DNA of 32,000 nt from Acinetobacter chinensis (GTDB lineage Bacteria; Pseudomonadota; Gammaproteobacteria; Pseudomonadales; Moraxellaceae). How positions within the stretch are numbered: the stretch's first letter is position 1; each line of letters opens with the position of its first letter. The notes beneath the pieces were generated by a model. It saw only the letters and a program-made list of their open reading frames with translations. It was not told where the DNA came from and ran no database searches. Positions 1-27,081 of this stretch are shown here, one piece after another. The stretch spans positions 1,115,817 to 1,147,816 of the forward strand of contig NZ_CP032134.1 of assembly GCF_002165375.2 (NCBI RefSeq), in the 5' to 3' direction. The translations under genes and the position numbers were made by a program.

Positions 1-2738
1 TGTGTTTCAATGCCTTCTGCAACAACGGTCATGCCCATGGCTTTACCCATTGCCACCATAGCACTGACAATAGCTTCCTGTTTGGCTTGTCCGATTTTGG
101 AAACAAAACTGCGGTCAATTTTCAGAATATCAATTGGAAAGTCTGCCAGGTAGGATAATGAAGAATAGCCTGTACCAAAATCATCCAGTGAAATATGAAT
201 TTTCCGTTGTTTGATACTCTGTAAAACATCTTTGACTGATTCAGAGTTTTCAACCAGGGATGACTCTGTAATTTCCAGTTCCAGGCTTTCACCTGAAATG
301 TTGTAGGTGCTGATGGCGGCATCGAGGTCTTCAATAAGCTGACCACGCTGAAGCTGCTGAGCAACAATATTGACTGAGACGCAGATATTCTTAAAACCTT
401 TTTTATTCCATTCCTGAATCTGTTTTGCAGTCTGCTGAATAACGATTCTGCCAATATCAGAAATCAGACTGGTCTGTTCAGCTAAAGGAATAAACATATT
501 AGGTGGAATAATACCTTTGACGGGATGATTCCATCTGACCAGGGCTTCAAAACCGTAAATCTGCTGATCACGGAAATTGATTTTTGGCTGATAATAGACA
601 ATCAGTTCATTGTTCTGAATGGCATGGCGTAAATCCCGTTCCAGATAAATACCCTGTTCGAGTAATTTTGTATTTTCTTTGGAATAGTATTTGATGGTAT
701 TGCCACCCAGGCGTTTTGCTTCTGACAATGCCTGTTCAGCACAGTTATTCAGATAATCCAGTTGGCGACCATGTTCAGGATAGAACGATACCCCCATGGA
801 CAGTGTAATAATATGATCCTGTCCAGAAATGTTAAAAGGCATGGAAAATGCTTTTGCTATTCTTTCACAGTGCTGCTGAACCGATGTTCTGATATGTGAG
901 ATTTCATAGACGATTGCAAAATCATCACCATTGAGATGCGCGAGGAACAGTGCTTCTGTATTTGTCAGACGTAATCTTTGTGCAACCTGACGGAGAAGTT
1001 CATCACCGCCATTATTGGTCAGGTATTCATTCAGTGGTCTGAAGCGGTCTATATTCAACCGGATAATGGCAAACTGATTGATTGAATCTTCCTGACTGAC
1101 CAGATACTGGTGCAGCTGGTAGTTATAATAAAAACGGTTAGGCAGATCAGTCAGTGGATCATAGTTTTCCAGGTAGGATAGACGCTGTTCCTGAAGTTTT
1201 CGTTCGGTCAGATCTGTGACGATACCAATATAATGAATGATACGATCCTGCTCATCTTTAATCGCACTGATATGAAGTCTGATGGAAAGCTCTTTGCCCG
1301 AAAGGAACTTTTCATTAAATTCAGCATCATATTTATGTGTTTCAAGCAGTTGCTGTACAATTTCATTATGTTTTGAGCGCTGTTGTGATTTGTAATTTGC
1401 AGTGATGTCAAACAGATGCTTACCCAGAATCTGCTCACGGTTGAAACCGCTGATTTTTTCATAAAATGGATTGGTGTCGATATAACACAGATCTTCATTG
1501 AGTATGAATATGCCCTCGGCAGCCTGTTCAAGGACACTTGCAGCAAGACGCAGACGTTCCTGATCTGTACGCTCCTGATGAATATTGCGTCGGATACCCA
1601 CCATGCGAAGCGGTTTTCCAGACTGTGGGTCACGTTCAATGACTCTCCCGGTATCATGCACCCAATACCATTTTTCCTTGGTGTTCTGAAGACGGTATGT
1701 TGTTTCATAGCGTTCGGTTTTTCCACGAAGATGGTGCTTCATGGAAGTTTTCAGGTGTGTAATATCATCTGGATGGATTTTATTCTGGAGTAACAGCTGA
1801 TGTGAGCGGGCATCAATTTTTCGGGTCTGTTGCTGTTCGTTGGTAATGGAAAAATGCCGTTCTTTGATGTTCCAGTCCCAGGGATTCAGCCCCGCAATTT
1901 CATGAGCGAGGTTTAAATTGTCCTGCTGTTCCTGAAGATTTTTATGCATCAGTTCAATATCATAGATACGCTCTCGGACTTTCTGTTCCAGTAACTGGTT
2001 ATTCAGCTGTAGCTGTAACTCGATGTCTTTGGATTTATTCATTTCCGACTGGAGTTGCTGACACAGCTCATCAGACCAGCTTGCCTGTTGCTCTGCATTC
2101 TTTTTCAGTACATTGTTCCGATAGTACATGCCGGTCAGACGACTGTGCATATTCATGATGGCATTGGCACATAAGAGCAGTATGATCAGAATAAAGTTGG
2201 TCACCAGATGAAACAGCGGATCAGACTGACTGGTCATAAATATCTGAGAAGCCACATAAGGTAAGACCGTAGGAACGGCAACCAGTAAAAAGAAGCTGAG
2301 GCGTTGCGTCAGATAAGTCAGTGCAAATGTCTGTGACACCAGAATCAGCAAGCCTGAAAGAATTAAGGCGTGGAATTCACTGAAATCAGGGTTGATACTC
2401 GGCAGATAGTAGTACAGCAGGGCGATGCCGATGGCGATGAGGATACCTGTCATCAGACAGACAAACTTCAGCCAGTAATTCCCTGTCTGCGGGCTGAACT
2501 GTCCTTTTTTGAAATACAGTGTGGTGATCATCAGCATGGAGCTGACTGAAACAGCAGTAATGATAAACCAGGAATTGAAATAGACCGAAGTCTGAGAAAA
2601 ATAAAACTGATAGAGACAGAATGTATAAATACAGGCAATAAAAATACTGACCAGATACAAGCGGATAAACCGAATGGTATTGGTTATTTGAGCCGCACGG
2701 ATATGCTGCTCCAATAGCTCATCTTTAATGTCTGACAT
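1..2738 (-). CDS. Membrane-anchored PAS / degenerate-GGDEF / EAL c-di-GMP signalling protein (C-terminus lies outside the window)
   Basis: Own minus-strand translation from the ATG at 2738-2736 gives MSDIKDELLEQHIRAAQ... It continues through several hydrophobic helices, a coiled-coil (LQLQLNNQLLEQKVRE) and PAS-like segments (KWYWVHDTGRVIERD; ILGKHLFDI). The GGDEF-domain signature reads NGDDF (AHLNGDDFAIVY). The EAL domain has QIYGFEALVRW and DDFGTGYSSLSYL. The frame stays open to base 1, which is why it is absent from the supplied ORF track. Confidence 0.85.
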   Translation of the reverse strand, partial: MSDIKDELLEQHIRAAQITNTIRFIRLYLVSIFIACIYTFCLYQFYFSQTSVYFNSWFIITAVSVSSMLMITTLYFKKGQFSPQTGNYWLKFVCLMTGILIAIGIALLYYYLPSINPDFSEFHALILSGLLILVSQTFALTYLTQRLSFFLLVAVPTVLPYVASQIFMTSQSDPLFHLVTNFILIILLLCANAIMNMHSRLTGMYYRNNVLKKNAEQQASWSDELCQQLQSEMNKSKDIELQLQLNNQLLEQKVRERIYDIELMHKNLQEQQDNLNLAHEIAGLNPWDWNIKERHFSITNEQQQTRKIDARSHQLLLQNKIHPDDITHLKTSMKHHLRGKTERYETTYRLQNTKEKWYWVHDTGRVIERDPQSGKPLRMVGIRRNIHQERTDQERLRLAASVLEQAAEGIFILNEDLCYIDTNPFYEKISGFNREQILGKHLFDITANYKSQQRSKHNEIVQQLLETHKYDAEFNEKFLSGKELSIRLHISAIKDEQDRIIHYIGIVTDLTERKLQEQRLSYLENYDPLTDLPNRFYYNYQLHQYLVSQEDSINQFAIIRLNIDRFRPLNEYLTNNGGDELLRQVAQRLRLTNTEALFLAHLNGDDFAIVYEISHIRTSVQQHCERIAKAFSMPFNISGQDHIITLSMGVSFYPEHGRQLDYLNNCAEQALSEAKRLGGNTIKYYSKENTKLLEQGIYLERDLRHAIQNNELIVYYQPKINFRDQQIYGFEALVRWNHPVKGIIPPNMFIPLAEQTSLISDIGRIVIQQTAKQIQEWNKKGFKNICVSVNIVAQQLQRGQLIEDLDAAISTYNISGESLELEITESSLVENSESVKDVLQSIKQRKIHISLDDFGTGYSSLSYLADFPIDILKIDRSFVSKIGQAKQEAIVSAMVAMGKAMGMTVVAEGIET

Positions 2739-12104: not shown

Positions 12105-12140
12105 TAAAAAAGCCTGATGCTTAATGCTCAGGCTTTTTTA
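12105..12140. terminator. Bidirectional rho-independent terminator
   Basis: aaaaaagcctga-tgcttaatgc-tcaggctttttta, flanked by an A-run and a T-run. It terminates the 138 aa gene. On the other strand it would originally have terminated the tRNA-Glu transcript. Confidence 0.7.
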
Positions 12141-12163: not shown

Positions 12164-12213
12164 ATGGCGTCCCTACGGGGATTCGAACCCCGGTTACCGC
12201 CGTGAAAGGGCGA
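12164..12213 (-). repeat. Prophage att direct repeat (displaced 3' 49 nt of tRNA-Glu plus 1 nt)
   Basis: 50 bp identical to 20456-20505. It covers the anticodon arm through the CCA end of tRNA-Glu. Identity stops at 12214, where gcatcc replaces tgtcct. Confidence 0.9.
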
Positions 12214-12252
12214 GCATCCAATTTATGAAAATAATTGTAAATATTTGTAAAG

Positions 12253-13077
12253 TTATACTAAGGAGGGTAAACATTTTAAAACTTCATGTAAATTCTCAGG
12301 TGCTAAATGTGCATAACGTTGAGTGATACGAGTATCAGAATGTCCCAATAATGTTGAAACATGATAAATGGGTACACCTTGTTTAACTAAAAAACTTGCA
12401 AATGTATGACGTAAATCATGAATTCGAAGCGGAGCCAAGTCAGCACGATCGGCTGAACACTGAAAGCCACGACGAAAACTCTTTATATGATGATTAGTCT
12501 TAGGATTATAAAAGACATATTTACGATGCAATTTAAGTCTAAGCAATGCATCAAATGAAGTATCATTGAGAGGTTTATAAATTGTCTTTTTATTCTTTGA
12601 CAATGAGTTCCTTATAATTATAAAGCGATCATTTAATGAAACATTATCCCATGTTAATGTGGTTAATTCAGAAGCACGACAACCAGTATTTAATGCTAAT
12701 AATATAAAATCATGTAAAACATAGTTATTATAACGCTTAGCAGATGATAATAATTTTTGACATTCAGTTGCATTTAGAAATTTAGGTATATAATCCTCTT
12801 CGAATAATTTAAACCCATTAAATACATTTTTAAAATTGACGTTTTTATGTTTTAAATAGTAATTGAAAGCAGACTTAATTACATTTAATTCTCTATTAAT
12901 AGTGCTGTTTTTAACACCGCATAATTTTCGATAAGCACAATAATCATTTACAATTTCAATTGTAATATCATCATACTCATAGAACCATTGAAGATGCATT
13001 ATTTTATCTGAATAGATATATTTAGAGTCAAAAAGACCATTTCGCACATAAAAATCTATAATTTCTTTAATATTCAT
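12253..13077 (-). CDS. int: Tyrosine recombinase / phage integrase
   Basis: Catalytic signature present: ALNTGCRASEL (Arg), RIHDLRHTFAS (H-x-x-R), LLGHSD (His), ITQRYAHL (Tyr). Track start 13089 is a GTG; the ATG at 13077 (MNIKEI) is preferred. It is adjacent to the att repeat. Confidence 0.85.
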   Translation of the reverse strand: MNIKEIIDFYVRNGLFDSKYIYSDKIMHLQWFYEYDDITIEIVNDYCAYRKLCGVKNSTINRELNVIKSAFNYYLKHKNVNFKNVFNGFKLFEEDYIPKFLNATECQKLLSSAKRYNNYVLHDFILLALNTGCRASELTTLTWDNVSLNDRFIIIRNSLSKNKKTIYKPLNDTSFDALLRLKLHRKYVFYNPKTNHHIKSFRRGFQCSADRADLAPLRIHDLRHTFASFLVKQGVPIYHVSTLLGHSDTRITQRYAHLAPENLHEVLKCLPSLV

Positions 13078-13155
13078 AAATACACACACCTAAATATAAT
13101 GGAAATTAAAATATATCAACTAATTAAAATAAGGCATTGAATTATATTGATTAAT

Positions 13156-13343
13156 GGGGCTTTGCCCCAAACCCCACCAAAGGGGGTGACCCCCTTTGGA
13201 AACCTCATATCTCTTCGCCAGAGTGGCAAGGGGGGATGTCACTTTGTGAACACCCCCCTTGAATTAGTGTGCTTTTCAATGTCTGCTGATCAATATGTTT
13301 TCAGATGAGCCGATGAGCTTAAGCTCACCGTTCAGTCTGAAAA
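13156..13343. other. Hairpin-rich intergenic region of the prophage (candidate packaging signal / replication origin)
   Basis: A GC-rich island in AT-rich DNA, containing:
- ggggc-ttt-gcccc (13156-13168).
- A perfect 11 bp-arm palindrome ccaaagggggt-g-accccctttgg (13177-13199).
- An imperfect hairpin aagggggg...cccccctt (13228-13260).
- A 46 nt hairpin (13298-13343) with outer stem ttttcaga/tctgaaaa around the 14 bp palindrome tgagcttaagctca (13314-13327). Confidence 0.5.
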
Positions 13344-13520
13344 ATATTGACAGTCAGATTTTGGAAAATATTTTTCAAATGTCTAAATTATTTTTAAAAG
13401 CTAAGACATATTTCTTAACGTAAATCAGATTAATTAACTATGACATATCAAAGATATGACATAGTTATTTACTAATTTTCTAAAATATGACTTATCTTTA
13501 AAATAATCATTAACTTAAGC

Positions 13521-13619
13521 TCAAGAAGTTTTTTGAAAGAGATCAATTAAGATTGAAAGAACCATGAGGAATAAGATAAAAGCCGTAATAATGATATAGC
13601 GATGTTCATTTAGATTCAT
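13521..13619 (-). CDS. Candidate 32 aa single-TM micro-protein translationally coupled to zot-like gene
   Basis: Own translation: MNLNEHRYIIITAFILFLMVLSILIDLFQKTS. Its ATG overlaps the Zot-like TGA stop (ATGA at 13619-13616). It is below the ORF-track size cutoff. Confidence 0.3.
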   Translation of the reverse strand: MNLNEHRYIIITAFILFLMVLSILIDLFQKTS

Positions 13620-15061
13620 ATTAAGCCTTGTTCTTTAGCGAGCTGATATTTAGCTAATTCTTCACGAGATAGTGAAACAGTAGAAATATTCTGATTAACA
13701 TTCTGTTGATTCATCGTATTGTTATTTTGAGTATTTAGATTCTGCTGTTTAAAGTAATCAAATGGACGATCACCAGAAGCAAAACGCATACAATCAGCAT
13801 CGGATATATCATACATTTGTGTCCCTTGCTGATTATAAGCATGGCATTTTCCATTGTAGATAATCGTAGCTGACAAACGAGGAAAATCAGTAGGGTTATA
13901 GTTTGCAGTGAAATTAGCGTCATAAGGCTTATTCGGATTATAGTCAAATACAACCTGTTGCATTGAATTGCCCGTCTGTTGTTGCAAAGCATTGTTTCTT
14001 TGTGCTGAATATGCAGGATCAAATGAGACACGACATTGTTCAGCTGTCATTTGTTTATCTTCGATACATTTTTCAACAATCATTTTTGTTTTAGTTTCTT
14101 CTGAATGGACAGAATAGCCCCCTGGAGACTGATCTTTTGAAGTTGCTGATATGGGTTCTTTTTCTCCAAAAATGCCCAGGGTATTTTTTTGTTTAGCATC
14201 GTAATAAGCATAACCCCAGAGTGCAAAAGGAATAGCTGCTACAGAAGCCAATCCGAGGGGAATACGTGCTTTTGTATGATGCTGTTCAGCTGAAATATAG
14301 TATTTATAAAGATTTTTTCTATATCTGAAAACACGCCATGACGTAGCATTTTTTCGATTTGATGAACCAAAATAAGTCTGGACTTCAGGATATTCAAAAA
14401 TAAAACAACATTGCCAGCCATACATGCGACGTAAAACAAGATGCAAAGAAGTTGCTGATTTGATAGCTGAGTTCACACGTTTAACATCCTGAGTGATCAT
14501 ATAGATATCGATACCAAAATGACCGTGAAGCGTTAATGATCTACCAATATCCAAAATAGCTTCTTTAGCTCTGATCAGTTTTCTTTTTTTCCAGACGTTG
14601 ACATGATCAATCAAGCTTTTCCGTATTTCTCTTGGAACTGATTTTTCATGCAAAATCTGAGATTTAAGTTTTGATTTAGAATCGTCATCAAAATCATTAT
14701 ATGAAAGATAATCAGTGAGTAATTGAAGTACATAATTATCAACAATTCCATTGCCGACTTTATTGATCAATGAATCATATTCTGAGACATCAACTGTCAT
14801 ATCTTTAAGAAGATCTTCATCAGAAAAAGCAGGATGCTCATGACATTCATCGTAAAAGAGAATAGAACCATTTGGCAAATCTCTCCAGTCAAAAGGTTTA
14901 TGTGTTGTCGACCTAATTGAAACAACACCAGGGTAATTCATACCGATGATGTTTGTAAAAATGATGCGATCAGGATATTTTTTTGAAAGCTGATCAATCA
15001 AATATACAGCGTATTGAGTTTTACCAGTACGTGGTGGTGCAGATATAAGAGTCTGTGTCAT
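13616..15061 (-). CDS. Zot-family assembly ATPase (inovirus pI-like)
   Basis: 481 aa ORF with an N-terminal Walker A (SAPPRTGKTQYAV), Walker-B-like ILFYDECHE, and a central TM helix (IPLGLASVAAIPFALWGYAYY). It has a Q/N-rich C-terminal domain. This architecture and position are typical of pI/Zot. Confidence 0.85.
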   Translation of the reverse strand: MTQTLISAPPRTGKTQYAVYLIDQLSKKYPDRIIFTNIIGMNYPGVVSIRSTTHKPFDWRDLPNGSILFYDECHEHPAFSDEDLLKDMTVDVSEYDSLINKVGNGIVDNYVLQLLTDYLSYNDFDDDSKSKLKSQILHEKSVPREIRKSLIDHVNVWKKRKLIRAKEAILDIGRSLTLHGHFGIDIYMITQDVKRVNSAIKSATSLHLVLRRMYGWQCCFIFEYPEVQTYFGSSNRKNATSWRVFRYRKNLYKYYISAEQHHTKARIPLGLASVAAIPFALWGYAYYDAKQKNTLGIFGEKEPISATSKDQSPGGYSVHSEETKTKMIVEKCIEDKQMTAEQCRVSFDPAYSAQRNNALQQQTGNSMQQVVFDYNPNKPYDANFTANYNPTDFPRLSATIIYNGKCHAYNQQGTQMYDISDADCMRFASGDRPFDYFKQQNLNTQNNNTMNQQNVNQNISTVSLSREELAKYQLAKEQGLI

Positions 15062-15069
15062 GTTTTTCT

Positions 15070-15135
15070 AGCCTGTTTCGCCAATGTCGTCGTTGTCGTC
15101 GCACCTCCTCCGCCTCCTCCGAAGCGAAACAGGCT
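15070..15135 (-). promoter_or_regulatory. Long-loop hairpin in the spacer between the pVI-like and pI/Zot-like genes
   Basis: 12 bp perfect inverted repeat agcctgtttcgc (15070-15081) / gcgaaacaggct (15124-15135). It encloses a 42 nt GC-rich loop which on the mRNA strand reads ggaggaggcggaggagg-tgcgacgacaacgacgac. It ends 8 nt upstream of the Zot-like ATG. Confidence 0.4.
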
Positions 15136-15139
15136 TGTT

Positions 15140-15415
15140 TTAACGCTTAACTAATCTGAGTTGTGCCATACCTACAGCCATCCCTGTTAATGAGCCAGAG
15201 AGCCAAAGAGAGAGCGCAGTAGGTATACCCATCATCCTAATGACCTGCAAAGCGTCCGGAGGTAATGATTGAAACTGTTCATTTATCGATTGAATGATTT
15301 TCTGTGTTAAAAAATCGACACCAGTGTATGAGATCAATGCAAGACCGAGACCTGCTAGAACCCAACCAACCAGGTTAAATGCAAAAAACTGTAAAACAGC
15401 GATTAATGCAGGCAT
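15140..15415 (-). CDS. Minor coat / assembly protein, pVI (Ace)-like
   Basis: 91 aa ORF with two hydrophobic helices. It lies between the pIII-like and pI-like genes, as gene VI does in Ff and ace does in CTXphi. Its start is 3 nt after the pIII-like stop. Confidence 0.55.
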   Translation of the reverse strand: MPALIAVLQFFAFNLVGWVLAGLGLALISYTGVDFLTQKIIQSINEQFQSLPPDALQVIRMMGIPTALSLWLSGSLTGMAVGMAQLRLVKR

Positions 15416-15417
15416 AT

Positions 15418-17007
15418 TTATTTCCCCGTAACGCCATAAGAAAGAAATTCACGAATTCCAAAGAAAGTACCGATGAAAATGAATACAAAATGAATTTGAA
15501 CAGCGAACTGACATATATATTTAAAAGTAAGAGTGATCGAACCTAACTTAGTTTGAACAACCCAAGGGGCAGGGCATTGTGCATTTGATGAACCGAATAA
15601 GCTGCCATCGAGCATATTTGATAAAGCACCAGCATCCTGTTCTTTAAAAACAGAATCGTTATCAGATTTGACTTTCCCATCACTCTGAAGCCATTCCATA
15701 TATTTCTTATCGAATTCAGCCTGGTCATCCATTTTTTTATTAATGTCGTTTAAAGCCTTGTGATATTCACCACGACACTCACCAGGAGCAAACAAGTCTG
15801 AAAGATTGTCATCAGTAAAATCAGTTTCTTTACAACGATTAAGTGATGTGCCTGAACCGTCACCATTGCCTGTACCATTCCCACCAGATCCAGAACCGGC
15901 TGCAGTATTATTTTTAATTGAAGTCAATAAATCAGAAATGGCATTCAATGAGTCATTAATACGAGCTGTATCAGAACTAATCTCTGAAAGTCTGTTATTT
16001 GAAGTCGTCATTTTTGAATCAATAGATTCAGTTGATTTATTGATATCTTTTAAATTTTCATTTGAAACATCAATCTTCCTGCTAATAGTATTCAAAGTTG
16101 TATTCAATTCAGAACGAGCATGGTTAACAGCTGAAGTAACTTGATTGATTGCAGAAATAACGCCTTTTAAATCGACGCCACCGCCACCAGTCGGGGGATT
16201 GCCGCCAGTAGGTTCAGAAGCACCGCCACCAGTCGGGGGATTGTCACCACCACCGTCACCACCTCCAGTCTCAGGTTCAGAAGCACCGCCACCTGTTTCT
16301 GGTGGAGGGGATGATTTAATACAAATCTCCTCACCATTCCAGTTTCCAGAAACATAGCCAGGACCACAGCCTTGTGGAGGTCTTTTGCAGTATGTAGCAC
16401 CATTACTACAACCCTGTTTTATCGGAGGCACTTCATCATCTGGACAAAGAATTGAGCCATCATGCTGACGAGTACAATTGTCATCAGGAGGGGTATAACA
16501 GCCACCATACGGATCTTTCGGATCACATGGAGGATTCAAAAGCTCTTCTTTACAGTTAGGATCAGGTGTTTTTGAAACCGAACTGAAGGTAGACGTTATA
16601 TAGCCGTTAATTACAGGAGCATTTGCAACATTACCAGTATATTTACAAAGCACTCCATTATTCGGAACACAAATCGTTTTTTTAATTTTTGTGTTCACAG
16701 ACTGTTGAACAACTTTGTAGTCTGGATGCCAACACTCTGCCGGTGCTAATTTTCTATAAATGTAGTAACCATTCATCACGTAATTACCGCTATTCTTAGT
16801 CTGACAATAACCATAATGATCTGGACCAGAATTAGGATAAAAAACTGAATATTTCGTTGAAGCATTATTAGCAGAAATAAGTAGATCACAAACGCCACTT
16901 GGTGACCTTGCTTCAAGATGAGAGTAATAATAAATATATTCTTCAGCATAAGAATTAACTGAAAAAATGCTGAATATTACGAAAATTAAATATCTGAAAA
17001 ATCTCAT
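15418..17007 (-). CDS. Receptor-binding minor coat protein, pIII-like
   Basis: 529 aa ORF with a signal peptide (…FSVNSYA/EE), a Cys-rich N-terminal region, a Gly-rich linker (PETGGGASEPETGGGDGGGDNPPTGGGASEPTGGNPPTGGGG), a middle domain, a second Gly/Ser linker (AAGSGSGGNGTGNGDGSGTS), and a hydrophobic C-terminal anchor (FVFIFIGTFFGI). This domain plan is as in Ff g3p. Confidence 0.7.
   Translation of the reverse strand: MRFFRYLIFVIFSIFSVNSYAEEYIYYYSHLEARSPSGVCDLLISANNASTKYSVFYPNSGPDHYGYCQTKNSGNYVMNGYYIYRKLAPAECWHPDYKVVQQSVNTKIKKTICVPNNGVLCKYTGNVANAPVINGYITSTFSSVSKTPDPNCKEELLNPPCDPKDPYGGCYTPPDDNCTRQHDGSILCPDDEVPPIKQGCSNGATYCKRPPQGCGPGYVSGNWNGEEICIKSSPPPETGGGASEPETGGGDGGGDNPPTGGGASEPTGGNPPTGGGGVDLKGVISAINQVTSAVNHARSELNTTLNTISRKIDVSNENLKDINKSTESIDSKMTTSNNRLSEISSDTARINDSLNAISDLLTSIKNNTAAGSGSGGNGTGNGDGSGTSLNRCKETDFTDDNLSDLFAPGECRGEYHKALNDINKKMDDQAEFDKKYMEWLQSDGKVKSDNDSVFKEQDAGALSNMLDGSLFGSSNAQCPAPWVVQTKLGSITLTFKYICQFAVQIHFVFIFIGTFFGIREFLSYGVTGK
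16179..16293. repeat. Short direct DNA repeats encoding the Gly-rich pIII linker
   Basis: caccgccaccagtcgggggattg occurs at 16179-16201 and 16221-16243. ggttcagaagcaccgccacc occurs at 16211-16230 and 16274-16293. Confidence 0.85.
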
Positions 17008-17108
17008 TAAAATACTCCAGATATTTAATCTAAAAACATTTTGTAAAAACTGAGAGCAAGAACCACATAAATGATCAAATTTATTAAATCCATGCTCTCA
17101 GCTCCCGA

Positions 17109-17315
17109 TTAACCTTTTTTAAACAGACGAATCACCAGACCGATACACATCAAAAAGACGACAGCACCGATCACGATTAATGAACCCTGATCCATTAAAC
17201 CCTCAGCACCTGCATCAGCATAAGCAGTAGTTAAATCAGCTGGAGTCAAAGCAAAAGCAGACTGTGTGAAAAGTGAAGCACTTCCAAGTGCTGTAATTGC
17301 AGTGATTTTTTTCAT
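17109..17315 (-). CDS. Major coat protein, pVIII-like
   Basis: 68 aa ORF with a signal peptide ending AFA. The mature ~46 aa form has an acidic N-terminus (D, D, E, D), a hydrophobic core (LIVIGAVVFLMCIGLVI) and a basic C-terminus (RLFKKG). Confidence 0.75.
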   Translation of the reverse strand: MKKITAITALGSASLFTQSAFALTPADLTTAYADAGAEGLMDQGSLIVIGAVVFLMCIGLVIRLFKKG

Positions 17316-17335
17316 GGTTTTACCCCTTAGTTAAG

Positions 17336-17512
17336 TTATGCGCCCAAAAATAAATGTTTGAGCATTTTTACAATGAACACCGTGATAAAACAGCAGATCG
17401 TGAAATACAGCAGTGAATCACGGATATCACCAGTGAAGGTCGGCAATAATTCATATTCAAAACATCTGACAACTGTGTCAGCATTCTGTTGAATCGTTTC
17501 GCAGACTTTCAT
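17336..17512 (-). CDS. Candidate 58 aa small protein (pVII/pIX-position)
   Basis: Own translation: MKVCETIQQNADTVVRCFEYELLPTFTGDIRDSLLYFTICCFITVFIVKMLKHLFLGA. A GGGGGA Shine-Dalgarno precedes it. It lies directly upstream of the major coat gene. Confidence 0.4.
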   Translation of the reverse strand: MKVCETIQQNADTVVRCFEYELLPTFTGDIRDSLLYFTICCFITVFIVKMLKHLFLGA

Positions 17513-17621
17513 TTTTCCCCCTTCTGAACTTTGTCAGAACAGTGAAGAAACTTTTAATATCAAAAAAGATGAAACGACCCAGACCGTATATAAAAAAGAT
17601 AAGTACAAAGTAGTAGGTCAT
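17478..17621 (-). CDS. Candidate 47 aa hydrophobic micro-protein (pVII/pIX-position)
   Basis: Own translation: MTYYFVLIFFIYGLGRFIFFDIKSFFTVLTKFRRGKNESLRNDSTEC. It overlaps the start of the next small ORF. Confidence 0.3.
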   Translation of the reverse strand: MTYYFVLIFFIYGLGRFIFFDIKSFFTVLTKFRRGKNESLRNDSTEC

Positions 17622-17654
17622 GAGATTATTATCCCTATAAATAGCCTAAGCAAA

Positions 17655-17957
17655 TCAAGCAGGTTTTGGAGATGCAGATTTTTGTGGCAAAAGGTCAAGC
17701 AAAATAAGTGCTGAAGTTTTACCGTTCGATACCTGCTCCATAGTCACATCAGCTACCAATGGGAAATCGAGTGATTTGATTTTTTCAAAATTTGCAGACG
17801 TACCCCATTTAATTTGTTCGCCAACTTCACCTACGAAGTTGTCACCAGCCTGTAAATCAGCCTTGTAAAAGATGACAGTCGAGTCATAAGGGCGACCCTG
17901 AAACTCACCTTTTGATGATTTAGCCCCAAGTACAACCATTGTTGATTTAAATTGCAT
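17655..17957 (-). CDS. Putative ssDNA-binding protein (pV / RstB position)
   Basis: 100 aa ORF that overlaps the Rep stop by 11 nt. The call is positional only, from its place immediately after the replication gene, plus its small, beta-rich-looking sequence. Confidence 0.4.
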   Translation of the reverse strand: MQFKSTMVVLGAKSSKGEFQGRPYDSTVIFYKADLQAGDNFVGEVGEQIKWGTSANFEKIKSLDFPLVADVTMEQVSNGKTSALILLDLLPQKSASPKPA

Positions 17958-19431
17958 GAGTTAATCCCTCATAGAAGTTATGTTTAGACGTAAGAAAAGG
18001 CACACCCTCAAATAAAGGTGTCTCATTAATGGTTTTGTTTCGAATAGGTTCACCGATACGCAAAGCTTGCATAACAGCAGAATGTGAAAAAACAAGGCGT
18101 TTAGGAACAACGTCCTTATCAGATGAAATAAGATTTAATAAATCTTCATCATTAATAAATTTACGAAATTGACGAATGTATTTACCGAATTGATGCTTAA
18201 GAACATCTAAAGCTTTATCTACATTGATAGTCGCTTGTTTTTCGATAAGCTCACATTTTTCAGGTACAACAAAATCATTTAGTTGATTTGCAAGAATCTC
18301 AAGCGCAGGGTAAGCACCTTTAAAATAAGTGCTCGGAGACAAAAGAATATCAAGTGGCAAATACCGATCAGTTGACTTAAGCTCCAGCTCTGCACGTGTC
18401 CAGAGACTAAGAGAATCCCCTTCCTTTTTGCCACGTTCATAAAAACGTAAGAATTTTGAACTTGAACGATTACCGACAGTTAAAGTACGCCCTTTACCAT
18501 TAATACGTTTCCAATCACCTAGACAATTTATCTCAGGATTACAGCCACCACACCAGAAAAGGTTCTGAGAATCCCATTCATAGGCAAGATCAACAGAGAC
18601 CCATTCGCTATCAAAGTCATCAAATGCAATATCAACCCTGTTAAGCTTCGGAGATACAGCCTGTACAGTTAGAAATTTATAAAGCTGTTCATTCCAACCT
18701 TTACGAGCTAAAGCACAGCCAGTACCGTTAATTTGAACAGTTACACGTTTATTGTTATGACCATAAAGCACAATGCCGAGGTTATCTTGCAAGTCATATC
18801 CAAATTTATTCCAGTGCATTCCTTTTTCACGTTTCTGTGAAATGCCAAAGCCAAAAATTTCAAAAAGAAGCTGATCAAGCCAAGTCTCAATAGCATCACC
18901 AACAGATTCATTAACCTGCTCTGGAGTAAGCATTACGTATTTATCACCGAATGTACTCTGACAAAAACTGAAGGTAATCCAATCTAAACCACAAATAGAG
19001 TTATCAATTGGAACAGCACGCAGAACAGGTAAAACACCTTGTGGCGTAGAAATCAGTTTGTAATTATCTAAGTTCCGAGGAAAAGCCCATGAATCAGATG
19101 CTTTTTGCGTATCCGCTACCCCTATATTATAAAAAGGGGAGCTTTCTGCCGTCTTTTGTGCAGGTATGGCTATTTTTTGTACAAATATTTCTGCAATGGA
19201 TTGATCATCTTTTTTCTTCGGTTTAACCAACGTGTTTTCAAAAGCACAAAGCTTGTTACGTGTAATGCCATCAAGCATGTTTCTTAAAATCTGAGAATCC
19301 GCAAGTGTGAGATCGCCAAATGCAGCACGAGCATAAAGCTCATGAGAAATTTCTTTTTCTTGATCAAATATTTCAGCGAGCGATAAGGATGCTGAATCAA
19401 AAGCTTGAATTTGAGAAAGGATTGTATTCAT
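17947..19431 (-). CDS. Rolling-circle replication initiator (pII / RstA-like, Rep_trans-type)
   Basis: 494 aa ORF. The segments VSPKLNRVDIAFDDFD, TLTVGNRSSSKFLRFYERGKKEG and RAELELK resemble the replication initiation factor family of CTXphi RstA, from memory. It is the first large gene of the leftward operon. Confidence 0.7.
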   Translation of the reverse strand: MNTILSQIQAFDSASLSLAEIFDQEKEISHELYARAAFGDLTLADSQILRNMLDGITRNKLCAFENTLVKPKKKDDQSIAEIFVQKIAIPAQKTAESSPFYNIGVADTQKASDSWAFPRNLDNYKLISTPQGVLPVLRAVPIDNSICGLDWITFSFCQSTFGDKYVMLTPEQVNESVGDAIETWLDQLLFEIFGFGISQKREKGMHWNKFGYDLQDNLGIVLYGHNNKRVTVQINGTGCALARKGWNEQLYKFLTVQAVSPKLNRVDIAFDDFDSEWVSVDLAYEWDSQNLFWCGGCNPEINCLGDWKRINGKGRTLTVGNRSSSKFLRFYERGKKEGDSLSLWTRAELELKSTDRYLPLDILLSPSTYFKGAYPALEILANQLNDFVVPEKCELIEKQATINVDKALDVLKHQFGKYIRQFRKFINDEDLLNLISSDKDVVPKRLVFSHSAVMQALRIGEPIRNKTINETPLFEGVPFLTSKHNFYEGLTHAI

Positions 19432-19515
19432 TCAAACCCCCATACCAAATAAGTAGCCCGAGATAAAACCAAGAACAACGCCAAGACCATAGGAAACGTA
19501 ATTAAAATCAGACAT
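19432..19515 (-). CDS. Candidate 27 aa TM micro-protein coupled between the 83 aa ORF and rep
   Basis: Own translation: MSDFNYVSYGLGVVLGFISGYLFGMGV. Its ATG overlaps the upstream TAA (TAATG), and its TGA abuts the rep ATG (TGAATG). Confidence 0.3.
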   Translation of the reverse strand: MSDFNYVSYGLGVVLGFISGYLFGMGV

Positions 19516-19766
19516 TAATCTTCCCCAAAAGCTTCAATAAGTTCTGAATTGGTTGCCTTAGTAATATGGTAATAAGCCTCAATTTTTGAAGCATCGTAGG
19601 ACCAATCTTGAGCAACTGTAGAAAGATGAGAAAGGCACTTCTCAGTAGAAATCGCAGGGGTTAATGCTTCAAAGCAAGGTTGAGCATGATCAGAGATAAT
19701 CTTAGCGACCTGATCAAAAGCAGCCTGAATAAATTCAGATTTAGTTTTAAAACTCAGATCAGCCAT
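19515..19766 (-). CDS. Hypothetical acidic 83 aa protein, first ORF of the leftward phage operon
   Basis: ORF with an AAGGGG Shine-Dalgarno. I recognise no family. Confidence 0.5.
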   Translation of the reverse strand: MADLSFKTKSEFIQAAFDQVAKIISDHAQPCFEALTPAISTEKCLSHLSTVAQDWSYDASKIEAYYHITKATNSELIEAFGED

Positions 19767-19807
19767 AAAAGCCCCTTGTATATTTTTTGACTAAAATCAA
19801 TTAGATT

Positions 19808-19835
19808 GACTTAACAGGTTACAGCCTGTTAAGTC
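19808..19835. promoter_or_regulatory. Perfect 11 bp-arm inverted repeat upstream of the leftward phage operon
   Basis: gacttaacagg-ttacag-cctgttaagtc, lying 42-69 nt upstream of the ATG at 19766. Confidence 0.4.
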
Positions 19836-20130
19836 ATTCAAATGTCATAGTGAGTGGAGATGAATATGACACCCGAAGTTTTAAATGAAGTAGCTACAAA
19901 TTCTTTTCTAAGTTTCTTAACTAAAAATTGGTTATTAATATTGATAGGAATGATCGTATTAATCATAAAAGTCAGAATGAAATAATCAGACCAATGAACC
20001 AAAATAAAACCAGATTAAGAAAACCGTAATTACCCCAAAAACATAACCCTGTATTGCATATGAATATTTACTATTAAAAATCTTAGAAATTATTTTTAGC
20101 ATGCAGGGATATCCTATTTTTTTTAACAAA

Positions 20131-20210
20131 CTTCGCAAAAATGCGAAGATGGAAGCAAAAAAAATCTTTACAATTATGCGAAGTGAATATACTTCGCATA
20201 ATTGCGAAAA
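20131..20210. promoter_or_regulatory. Operator-like TGCGAAG/CTTCGCA palindromes over the regulator promoter
   Basis: Inverted repeat 1 is cttcgca-aaaa-tgcgaag (20131-20148). Inverted repeat 2 is attatgcgaagt-gaatat-acttcgcataat (20173-20202, 12 bp arms). There is an extra half-site, aattgcgaa, just after. TTTACA (20167-20172) and TATACT (20188-20193) overlap inverted repeat 2. Confidence 0.45.
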
Positions 20211-20225
20211 ATCAAGAGGTGAAAA

Positions 20226-20513
20226 ATGCTGAACGAACTTATTGAGAAGTGCAAGGAACGATTTGGGAGTTACGAAAAATTAGCATGGGAATTAGAATTA
20301 ACCCCATCAGTTGTTTCAGATTGGCGAGCAAAAAGAAGAAAACCCAACACAATTCAAGTCATGCAAATGGCTGAATTTGTTGGGTTTGATCAGTACCAAA
20401 CACTCTGCTTAGTGATGGAAGAAATCGACATCAAGAATGCAGAGCTTTGGAGAAAATGGCGTCCCTACGGGGATTCGAACCCCGGTTACCGCCGTGAAAG
20501 GGCGATGTCCTAG
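20226..20513 (+). CDS. Phage HTH transcriptional regulator (repressor candidate); 3' end crosses the att core into tRNA-Glu
   Basis: 95 aa ORF with an AGAGG Shine-Dalgarno. It has an HTH-like segment (YEKLAWELELTPSVVSDWRAKRRKP). It is divergent from the structural operon, as rstR is in CTXphi. The last 19 codons (WRPYGDSNPGYRRERAMS-stop) are the antisense of tRNA-Glu. Confidence 0.6.
   Translation: MLNELIEKCKERFGSYEKLAWELELTPSVVSDWRAKRRKPNTIQVMQMAEFVGFDQYQTLCLVMEEIDIKNAELWRKWRPYGDSNPGYRRERAMS
20456..20505 (-). repeat. Prophage att direct repeat (forms the 3' part of the intact tRNA-Glu)
   Basis: Identical to 12164-12213. Confidence 0.9.
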
Positions 20514-20532
20514 GCCTCTAGACGATAGGGAC
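20457..20532 (-). tRNA. tRNA-Glu (UUC), copy 1 (prophage-occupied)
   Basis: The minus strand reads GTCCCTATCGTCTAGAGGCCTAGGACATCGCCCTTTCACGGCGGTAACCGGGGTTCGAATCCCCGTAGGGACGCCA. Acceptor stem GTCCCTA/TAGGGAC, anticodon loop CTTTCAC, T-loop TTCGAAT, encoded CCA. It is close to E. coli tRNA-Glu. Confidence 0.95.
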
Positions 20533-20563
20533 TTATATGAGGCAATACTTCTGAAACAATTAA

Positions 20564-20639
20564 TGGCGTCCCTACGGGGATTCGAACCCCGGTTACCGCC
20601 GTGAAAGGGCGATGTCCTAGGCCTCTAGACGATAGGGAC
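20564..20639 (-). tRNA. tRNA-Glu (UUC), copy 2 (tandem with copy 1, 31 nt spacer)
   Basis: 76 nt identical to copy 1. Confidence 0.95.
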
Positions 20640-22414: not shown

Positions 22415-22490
22415 TGGCGTCCCTACGGGGATTCGAACCCCGGTTACCGCCGTGAAAGGGCGATGTCCTAGGCCTCTAGACGATAGGGAC
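22415..22490 (-). tRNA. tRNA-Glu (UUC), copy 3
   Basis: 76 nt identical to copy 1. Confidence 0.95.
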
Positions 22491-26918: not shown

Positions 26919-27005
26919 TAAAAATATATAATTAAAATTCAGAATTCAATTGAAAAAAATGAAGTGTCTGAAAAAGACATAACAGAAGGAGTGGTGTATA
27001 GATAA

Positions 27006-27081
27006 TGGCGTCCCTACGGGGATTCGAACCCCGGTTACCGCCGTGAAAGGGCGATGTCCTAGGCCTCTAGACGATAGGGAC
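27006..27081 (-). tRNA. tRNA-Glu (UUC), copy 4
   Basis: 76 nt identical to copy 1. Confidence 0.95.

Follow-up and report, generated by a model that had tools for sequence, protein, structure and literature searches.

How many proteins does a phage regulator gene encode when it runs without interruption through the attachment site of its own prophage, and does the answer matter to the phage? The question is raised by a small helix-turn-helix (HTH) ORF at one end of a prophage of Acinetobacter chinensis, which lies in the 32,000-nt stretch of contig NZ_CP032134.1 analyzed here (the window, whose numbering is used throughout). A first-pass annotation of this DNA had placed the recombination site inside the coding region of the regulator and had claimed that integration truncates the protein and exchanges its tail, with a choice left between a role in telling lysogenic from episomal regulator activity and neutrality.

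RESULTS AND DISCUSSION

An inovirus prophage in a tRNA-Glu gene

The element is an 8.3-kb prophage (12164 to 20505) located in a tRNA-Glu(TTC) gene and bounded at each end by an exact 50-bp core, which reads, on the plus strand, as the 3' 49 nt of tRNA-Glu in antisense with 1 nt more. The features of the locus are collected in Table 1. Four tRNA-Glu(TTC) genes, identical in sequence and all on the minus strand, are found in the window: a tandem pair (20457 to 20639) and the genes at 22415 to 22490 and 27006 to 27081. Each of them contains the same 49-nt target, but the phage occupies just the distal member of the tandem pair. In the relatives L199 and L200, the empty attB consists of a terminator hairpin, tRNA-Glu, and the tandem tRNA-Glu in uninterrupted succession; since the unoccupied site is contiguous in these related genomes, the insertion is clean. 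Judging from the same empty sites, the host terminator at about 12105 to 12140 is the one that normally follows tRNA-Glu. The genome holds one copy of the phage, with neither a tandem array nor an attP.

The gene block between the cores encodes an 83-aa protein, a Rep_trans initiator, an ssDNA-binding candidate (100 aa), the major coat protein (68 aa), a pIII-like protein (529 aa), a pVI-like DUF2523 protein, and a pI-like Zot ATPase. Assignment to the inoviruses (Tubulavirales) was based on the presence of Rep, ssDNA-binding, major coat, pIII-like, pVI-like, and Zot/pI genes on one strand of an element of about 6 to 9 kb, and this set was found here with matches to PF02486, PF05707, and PF10734 and to phrog_453, 197, 1242, 1646, and 17788. 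As the element is an inovirus, its circular form is the replicative form and not only a transient product of excision. Homologous prophages were located in A. guerrae and A. corruptisaponis, and the integrase was found in 7 of 240 Acinetobacter species representatives. The sequenced-phage collection contains no record of the regulator or of the phage, the only matches being those to tRNA-Glu itself, and the literature that we found on Acinetobacter filamentous phages makes no mention of att sites, integrase, or repressor.

Table 1. Features of the prophage locus, in window coordinates
Feature	Position	Strand	Basis or remark
attL core (50 bp)	12164-12213		Exact repeat of attR core
Segment for residues 94-130 and stop codon of the circular form	12213-12326	+	Simulated junction
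Spacer, from core to int stop codon	12214-12252		Sequence; open in the regulator frame only
Tyrosine integrase, ORF of 278 aa from GTG	12253-13089	-	PF00589, E=9.5e-30; phrog_1, E=2.3e-53
Inovirus gene block	13616-19766	-	Pfam and PHROG matches
Zot/pI ATPase	13616-15061	-	Pfam/PHROG
Rep_trans initiator	17947-19431	-	Pfam/PHROG
Two CTTCGCA/TGCGAAG palindromes, putative operators	20131-20205		Sequence; upstream of regulator, over its promoter region
HTH regulator ORF, prophage form of 95 aa	20226-20513	+	ORF list, translation
Conserved HTH domain, residues 1-77, six helices	20226-20456	+	AF2, family conservation
attR core (50 bp)	20456-20505		Exact repeat of 12164-12213; encodes regulator residues 78-93
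tRNA-Glu(TTC) rebuilt at attR	20457-20532	-	ARAGORN

The integrase gene, int, lies at the attL end. Its likely start is the ATG at 13077, giving 274 aa, and a truncation of the 278-aa ORF was ruled out, as the full-length homologues have about 275 aa. The protein comprises a core-binding and a catalytic domain, with no extra N-terminal arm-binding domain. None of the ORFs tested, small ones included, gave a Pfam or PHROGs match to an excisionase (Xis/RDF), a result that falls short of proof of absence. Between int and zot, 525 nt (13090 to 13615) hold no convincing ORF. The spacer that separates the attL core from the int stop codon contains two direct TTGTAAA repeats (12235 to 12241 and 12245 to 12251). 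This pair, about 10 nt apart, is kept throughout the Acinetobacter relatives, in 11 arms (those of the window, L001, L003, L004, L029, L032, and L111 to L115), and an analogous pair, ATTAGTTACA twice, is present in L116 (571 to 607). The spacer repeats are probably Int-binding sites. Within every TTGTAAA repeat there is a stop triplet, in one frame for the first copy and in another for the second, which leaves the regulator frame alone open.

Two forms of the regulator

The regulator starts with ATG, directly downstream of a strong ribosome-binding site (AAGAGGTG). It crosses the entire attR core and stops at a TAG (20511 to 20513) whose last base is located 8 nt past the core, in tRNA-Glu; we thereby reproduce the coordinates and the 95-aa length of the first-pass annotation. 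Codon 78 (TGG) is complementary to the CCA end of the tRNA, and at the other side of the core, the host tRNA-Glu gives the prophage form its last two codons and its stop. When excision was simulated in silico by joining the regulator and core to what lies beyond the attL core, a product of 130 aa with its stop at 12324 to 12326 was obtained. This is the tail that had been predicted for the circle, at about 130 aa and antisense to the 3' end of int: the last 37 residues are read from the 39-nt spacer and then, in antisense, from the 23 terminal codons of int, which the end of the longer form overlaps on the opposite strand. By this layout, the two forms are mutually exclusive and tied to the state of the DNA.

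Residues 3 to 76 match the transcriptional regulator family phrog_638 (E=1.6e-12). The AF2 model of the 95-aa form has a mean pLDDT of 94; residues 1 to 77 score about 97 in the models of both forms, and in the model of the viral form, the tail scores 34 to 55 against 93 to 96 for residues 1 to 70. Foldseek placed Xre-family proteins, cI, and Cro at the top of its list (probabilities reached 1.0, but no E value was below 0.1), and PF01381 is precomputed on several homologues, the Pfam matches of the window regulator itself being below threshold. Based on the profile match and the predicted structure, we assign the regulator to the Xre/cI/Cro type, with a predicted lambda-repressor-like helical DNA-binding domain. 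The piece encoded by the core is very polar (GRAVY -2.2), and the viral tails that follow it are hydrophobic (+0.4 to +0.9 over their first 37 residues).

Both forms in public sequence data

A search of 5.8 billion proteins retrieved 55 close homologues, and the core-encoded segment is present in 55/55. Considering all fetched proteins that carry the tRNA-Glu-encoded segment, 58 in number, the prophage-type end is found in 40, while the other 18 continue for 38 to 72 further residues; a short alternative (non-tRNA) end is found in none of the 58. Tails homologous to the viral ones are present in the database proteins P0007, P0008, P0012, and P0022, and P0004, P0036, and P0043 are further proteins of the long form. 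The metagenome contig L029 (1.8 kb) is itself an attP junction, in which the regulator (134 aa) and the core are followed by a complete, oppositely oriented int of 275 aa. When excision of prophage L037 was simulated, the attP product matched P0022 at 95% identity over 130 aa. Because of this junction and this match, the excision simulation can be said to predict genes that are actually assembled. On this sequence evidence, the pattern goes beyond chance at one locus, and the claim that integration swaps the tail at a recombination site within the coding region holds in the window and in related phages alike.

The same data bear on whether the read-through is real at all. The core could be untranslated, or the circle could never persist since the phage replicates from the chromosome, and the single copy in the genome, neither arrayed in tandem nor accompanied by an attP, fits this reading. 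We give it next to no credence, given a strong ribosome-binding site, an ATG start, and a confident fold, a frame kept in at least 55 homologues, attP-junction ORFs assembled in independent datasets, an intact Int, and clean att sites.

Some further observations were made in these searches. The metagenome scan yielded only L029 to L032 and L037 as useful loci and otherwise mostly plain tRNA-Glu genes, since the most conserved peptide words are tRNA-encoded. A candidate remnant of the regulator beside the fourth tRNA-Glu gene (about 26967 to 27059) was rejected, as it comprises just the tRNA-encoded part and a weak similarity. In L029, an ORF of 150 aa (6 to 458, plus strand) is located upstream of the regulator in the same direction; it has no counterpart in the phage of the window, so the regulatory regions differ in content among members of the family. 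The close homologue P0056 (107 aa) leaves the family at about residue 68 and continues into a repetitive tail with HGDIRHLE twice, which may be a rearranged or chimeric junction.

The layout at other tRNA targets

An exhaustive, profile-free search with residues 1 to 76 alone retrieved relatives at 30 to 40% identity, and in many of them, the C terminus reads like an antisense tRNA 3' end right after the conserved last helix. One such relative is encoded in L116, an 8.1-kb inovirus prophage with 48-bp repeats of tRNA-Arg(CCG) at its ends. Its regulator, about 36% identical to that of the window, runs into attR, and its int, 42% identical, is located at attL. The prophage form of the L116 regulator has 97 aa versus 136 aa for the simulated viral form, and only the regulator frame is open. 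This tRNA-Arg lineage is represented in the database by the short protein P0074 and by the long proteins P0069, P0070, and P0077 (132 to 137 aa).

A subfamily rich in GC likewise extends into tRNA-Arg(CCG), its HTH domain being followed first by a hydrophobic segment of transmembrane-like character. These relatives are the IMG/VR proviruses L117 to L147 (e.g., L126, 10001 to 10420, and L139, 10001 to 10423), with alternative ends giving 139, 142, and 170 aa. In the forms of L117 and L145, no tRNA follows the core and the downstream context is not int. In L147 and in P0089/P0096, the tail resembles a tRNA 3' end in sense orientation. Relatives of P0083 were not found in the viral contigs searched.

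Is the tail under selection?

The existence of two forms leaves room for a neutral by-product of a compact genome, in which residues 1 to 77 alone would matter, the tails would be tolerated, and the isoforms would behave alike. We consider this neutral reading, the main rival of the switch discussed below, a real possibility, if not a probable one. The tRNA-independent conservation of the family stops at residue 77/78, which is the core edge, so the tail lies outside the DNA-binding fold. Conservation of the fold that stops at the core favors neutrality, as does the finding that the two forms of gp33 of mycobacteriophage BPs bind DNA equally, which means that a tail need not change binding (PMC4557955). 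A fold that ends at the core does not argue against a function for the tail, as it is compatible with a tail that might alter stability or activity in the way seen in BPs (PMC4557955). The first-pass annotation had proposed to align homologues and had regarded conservation ending well before the core, followed by variable tails, as evidence against its claim. The alignment gives a divided answer: conservation ends exactly at the core and not well before it, which suits the claim, and the tails vary with the tRNA, which does not.

The tails themselves are dictated by the tRNA used or by the int-side arm. The viral forms have 130 to 165 aa with tails of 37 to 71 residues, whose ends differ by lineage, and a conserved C-terminal tag is absent from them; in sequence, none of the viral tails, that of L116 included, has an end of the Ala-Ala (ssrA-like) type, though a degron of another kind may be present. 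The phage of the window has a stop where its relatives continue for 24 more residues. The variable lengths and the missing tag are what neutral tails would show, and the one near-invariant tail motif, 'FC[KN]', is likewise accounted for at the DNA level, since it is encoded by the TTGTAAA repeats. The overlap shows no drop in the synonymous diversity of int (0.43 and 0.54, versus 0.41 to 0.57 elsewhere), as expected under neutrality, and the tail residues are therefore without detectable purifying selection.

What the neutral reading explains less readily is that the regulator frame always stays open. Over the first 111 nt beyond the core, this frame contains 0 stops in the 11 distinct int-side arms, and the other two frames contain 63 and 31; no lineage stops before, inside, or shortly after the core, and 18 proteins and 11 arms continue for at least 37 codons. 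Over the body of int, stops interrupt the same antisense frame 18 to 27 times in about 278 codons. In the 130-aa class, an open run of 23 codons over int is what the int protein would give in any case (synonymous-shuffle P of 0.5 to 0.78), again in line with neutrality. In three of the long-tail arms (L004, L111, and L113), codon choice in int avoids antisense stops beyond synonymous shuffles (P = 0.013 to 0.025), and in a fourth such arm, L032, P is 0.17. The int-overlapping portion of the tail is thus weakly informative on selection. More can be learned from the spacer, which is AT-rich and poorly conserved and has 0 stops in the regulator frame and 14 and 10 in the others. When spacers were shuffled, an open regulator frame had a P of 0.14 to 0.51 per sequence and a joint probability of about 1e-3 over about six related lineages, a value that overstates the significance because of that relatedness. 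A frame test through the cores is uninformative, since these are nearly stop-free in all frames. The joint probability and the recurrence of the layout at a second tRNA both stand against neutrality, and we regard the spacer result as moderate evidence that a stop right after the core is selected against.

Putative operators and transcription across attP

The open frame could also be secondary to a selected feature that is transcriptional. In the circle, the regulator (plus strand) and int (minus strand) are convergent across attP, and in the prophage, they lie at opposite ends. The regulator and the int/lytic operon might then interfere with each other by antisense transcription across attP, integration would uncouple them, and the open frame would merely keep ribosomes on the regulator transcript. 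A consensus scan, which is weak evidence, found no terminator-like site separating int from the core, nor one downstream of the regulator stop. The palindromes at 20131 to 20148 and 20170 to 20205 do form minus-strand hairpins followed by T-runs and scored as terminator-like; these hairpins could stop antisense read-through across the regulator, coming from the tRNA-Glu promoter in the prophage or from int in the circle. The missing terminators, the fact that the palindromes are the only minus-strand hairpins with T-runs, and a convergent layout kept in L029 and L116 all agree with transcriptional interference as the selected feature. We deem it quite improbable, though, given the weakness of consensus scans as evidence and the avoidance of stops in one frame, which it leaves unexplained unless translation protects the RNA.

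A candidate integration-sensing switch

With modest confidence, we lean towards an integration-sensing repressor switch analogous to the immunity of BPs or to ORF13 of the Ralstonia inovirus RSS0. The sequences show the two isoforms, their occurrence in public data, the layout at two tRNA targets, and the avoidance of stops in the regulator frame; what we infer is a repressor role for the regulator, its use of the operators, and a difference in stability or activity between its forms. The regulator gene has no stop of its own and takes one from whatever sequence lies beyond attP. In the circle, the product would be the 130-aa protein, consisting of the HTH domain, 16 polar core-encoded residues, and 37 hydrophobic residues; if this long form is less stable or less active, the episome would be derepressed and make Rep, virion proteins, and Int. 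Int-mediated insertion into tRNA-Glu would then add two codons and a stop, resulting in the compact 95-aa protein, and this short prophage form would repress stably via the TGCGAAG palindromes. Upon excision, the weak form would return, committing the phage to production.

More tentatively, and at somewhat less than even odds, the scheme may extend to a whole clade of tRNA-integrating filamentous phages: the host tRNA would encode the final residues and the stop of the active repressor, the long hydrophobic tail of the episomal form would disable it, and the system would have arisen independently of those of actinobacteriophages or long before them. Members of such a clade target tRNA-Glu and tRNA-Arg, and probably other tRNAs too. 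If this wider reading is true, the clade would possess a minimal bistable integration-sensing switch.

So far, integration-dependent immunity is experimentally supported in actinobacteriophages and is otherwise represented by one hypothesis-level remark on a Ralstonia inovirus. Here, Gram-negative filamentous phages show the same logic in a layout that is conserved, with another gene arrangement and at least two tRNA targets that give the stop. If the isoforms differ in activity, this would explain how small chronic phages without cII/cIII or an excisionase choose between lysogeny and virion production, and it would amount to a very compact and portable integration sensor. The layout also has a consequence for annotation, where regulator genes at prophage ends that enter tRNA genes are usually trimmed or ignored, although the episomal and prophage products differ.

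Comparison with known systems

Small HTH repressors encoded opposite to the replication and structural genes confer immunity in other integrative filamentous phages, such as RstR of CTXphi and Pf4r of Pf4; neither gene is known to span the attachment site. An attP inside a coding sequence is found in intP/intX of the myxophage Mx8, where integration alters the C terminus of the protein, but the gene affected there is the integrase and not a repressor.

Among inoviruses, the Ralstonia phages RSM1 and RSM3 have an attP formed by a tRNA 3' end in reverse orientation and located between the recombinase and the repressor ORF15, and ORF15 is reported to be unaltered by integration (PMC3816273). They share with the phage of the window an own recombinase, but the RSM recombinase is of the serine type and the core has 13 nt. 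Closer in layout is RSS0 of Ralstonia solanacearum, where attP lies at the 3' end of ORF13 and integration shortens the protein from 156 to 130 aa (Yamada 2013; PMC3816273). Both are filamentous phages in which a reverse-oriented HTH regulator spans attP and is shortened by integration, a likeness of layout. RSS0 uses the host XerCD at dif, in contrast to the own tyrosine integrase and tRNA-Glu target found here, and a functional difference between the forms of ORF13 was put forward as a hypothesis from one phage (PMC3816273).

Integration-dependent immunity was described for mycobacteriophage BPs and Clusters G, I, N, and P (Broussard & Hatfull; PMC3694055, PMC4557955), and nowhere in the literature searched is it linked to inoviruses. 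In BPs, attP lies within the repressor gene, and gp33 passes from a viral form of 136 aa, which is degraded via an ssrA-like tag, to a prophage form of 103 aa that is stable and active (PMC3694055, PMC4557955). The systems have in common an attP core within the repressor ORF (here in 55 homologues and L116), a longer viral form (136 versus 103 aa in BPs; 130 versus 95 aa here), a tyrosine Int, and divergent promoters with operators, putative in our case, beside the repressor gene; as far as the Pfam and PHROGs matches reach, a recognized excisionase is missing here as it is in BPs. They differ in that rep and int of BPs are codirectional and cotranscribed (int-rep-cro cassette, Prep), whereas the genes are convergent here, and in that the BPs tail is a demonstrated ssrA-like degradation tag, whereas the tail here has no conserved tag and is encoded by the att arm and, in antisense, by int. 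The comparison reaches from BPs to an inovirus of a Gram-negative host known from its sequence, and we claim no homology with the BPs protein. Since its tails have no conserved tag and its genes are convergent and not cotranscribed, the arrangement described here is best viewed, by analogy, as one that resembles the BPs switch without being a member of that system.
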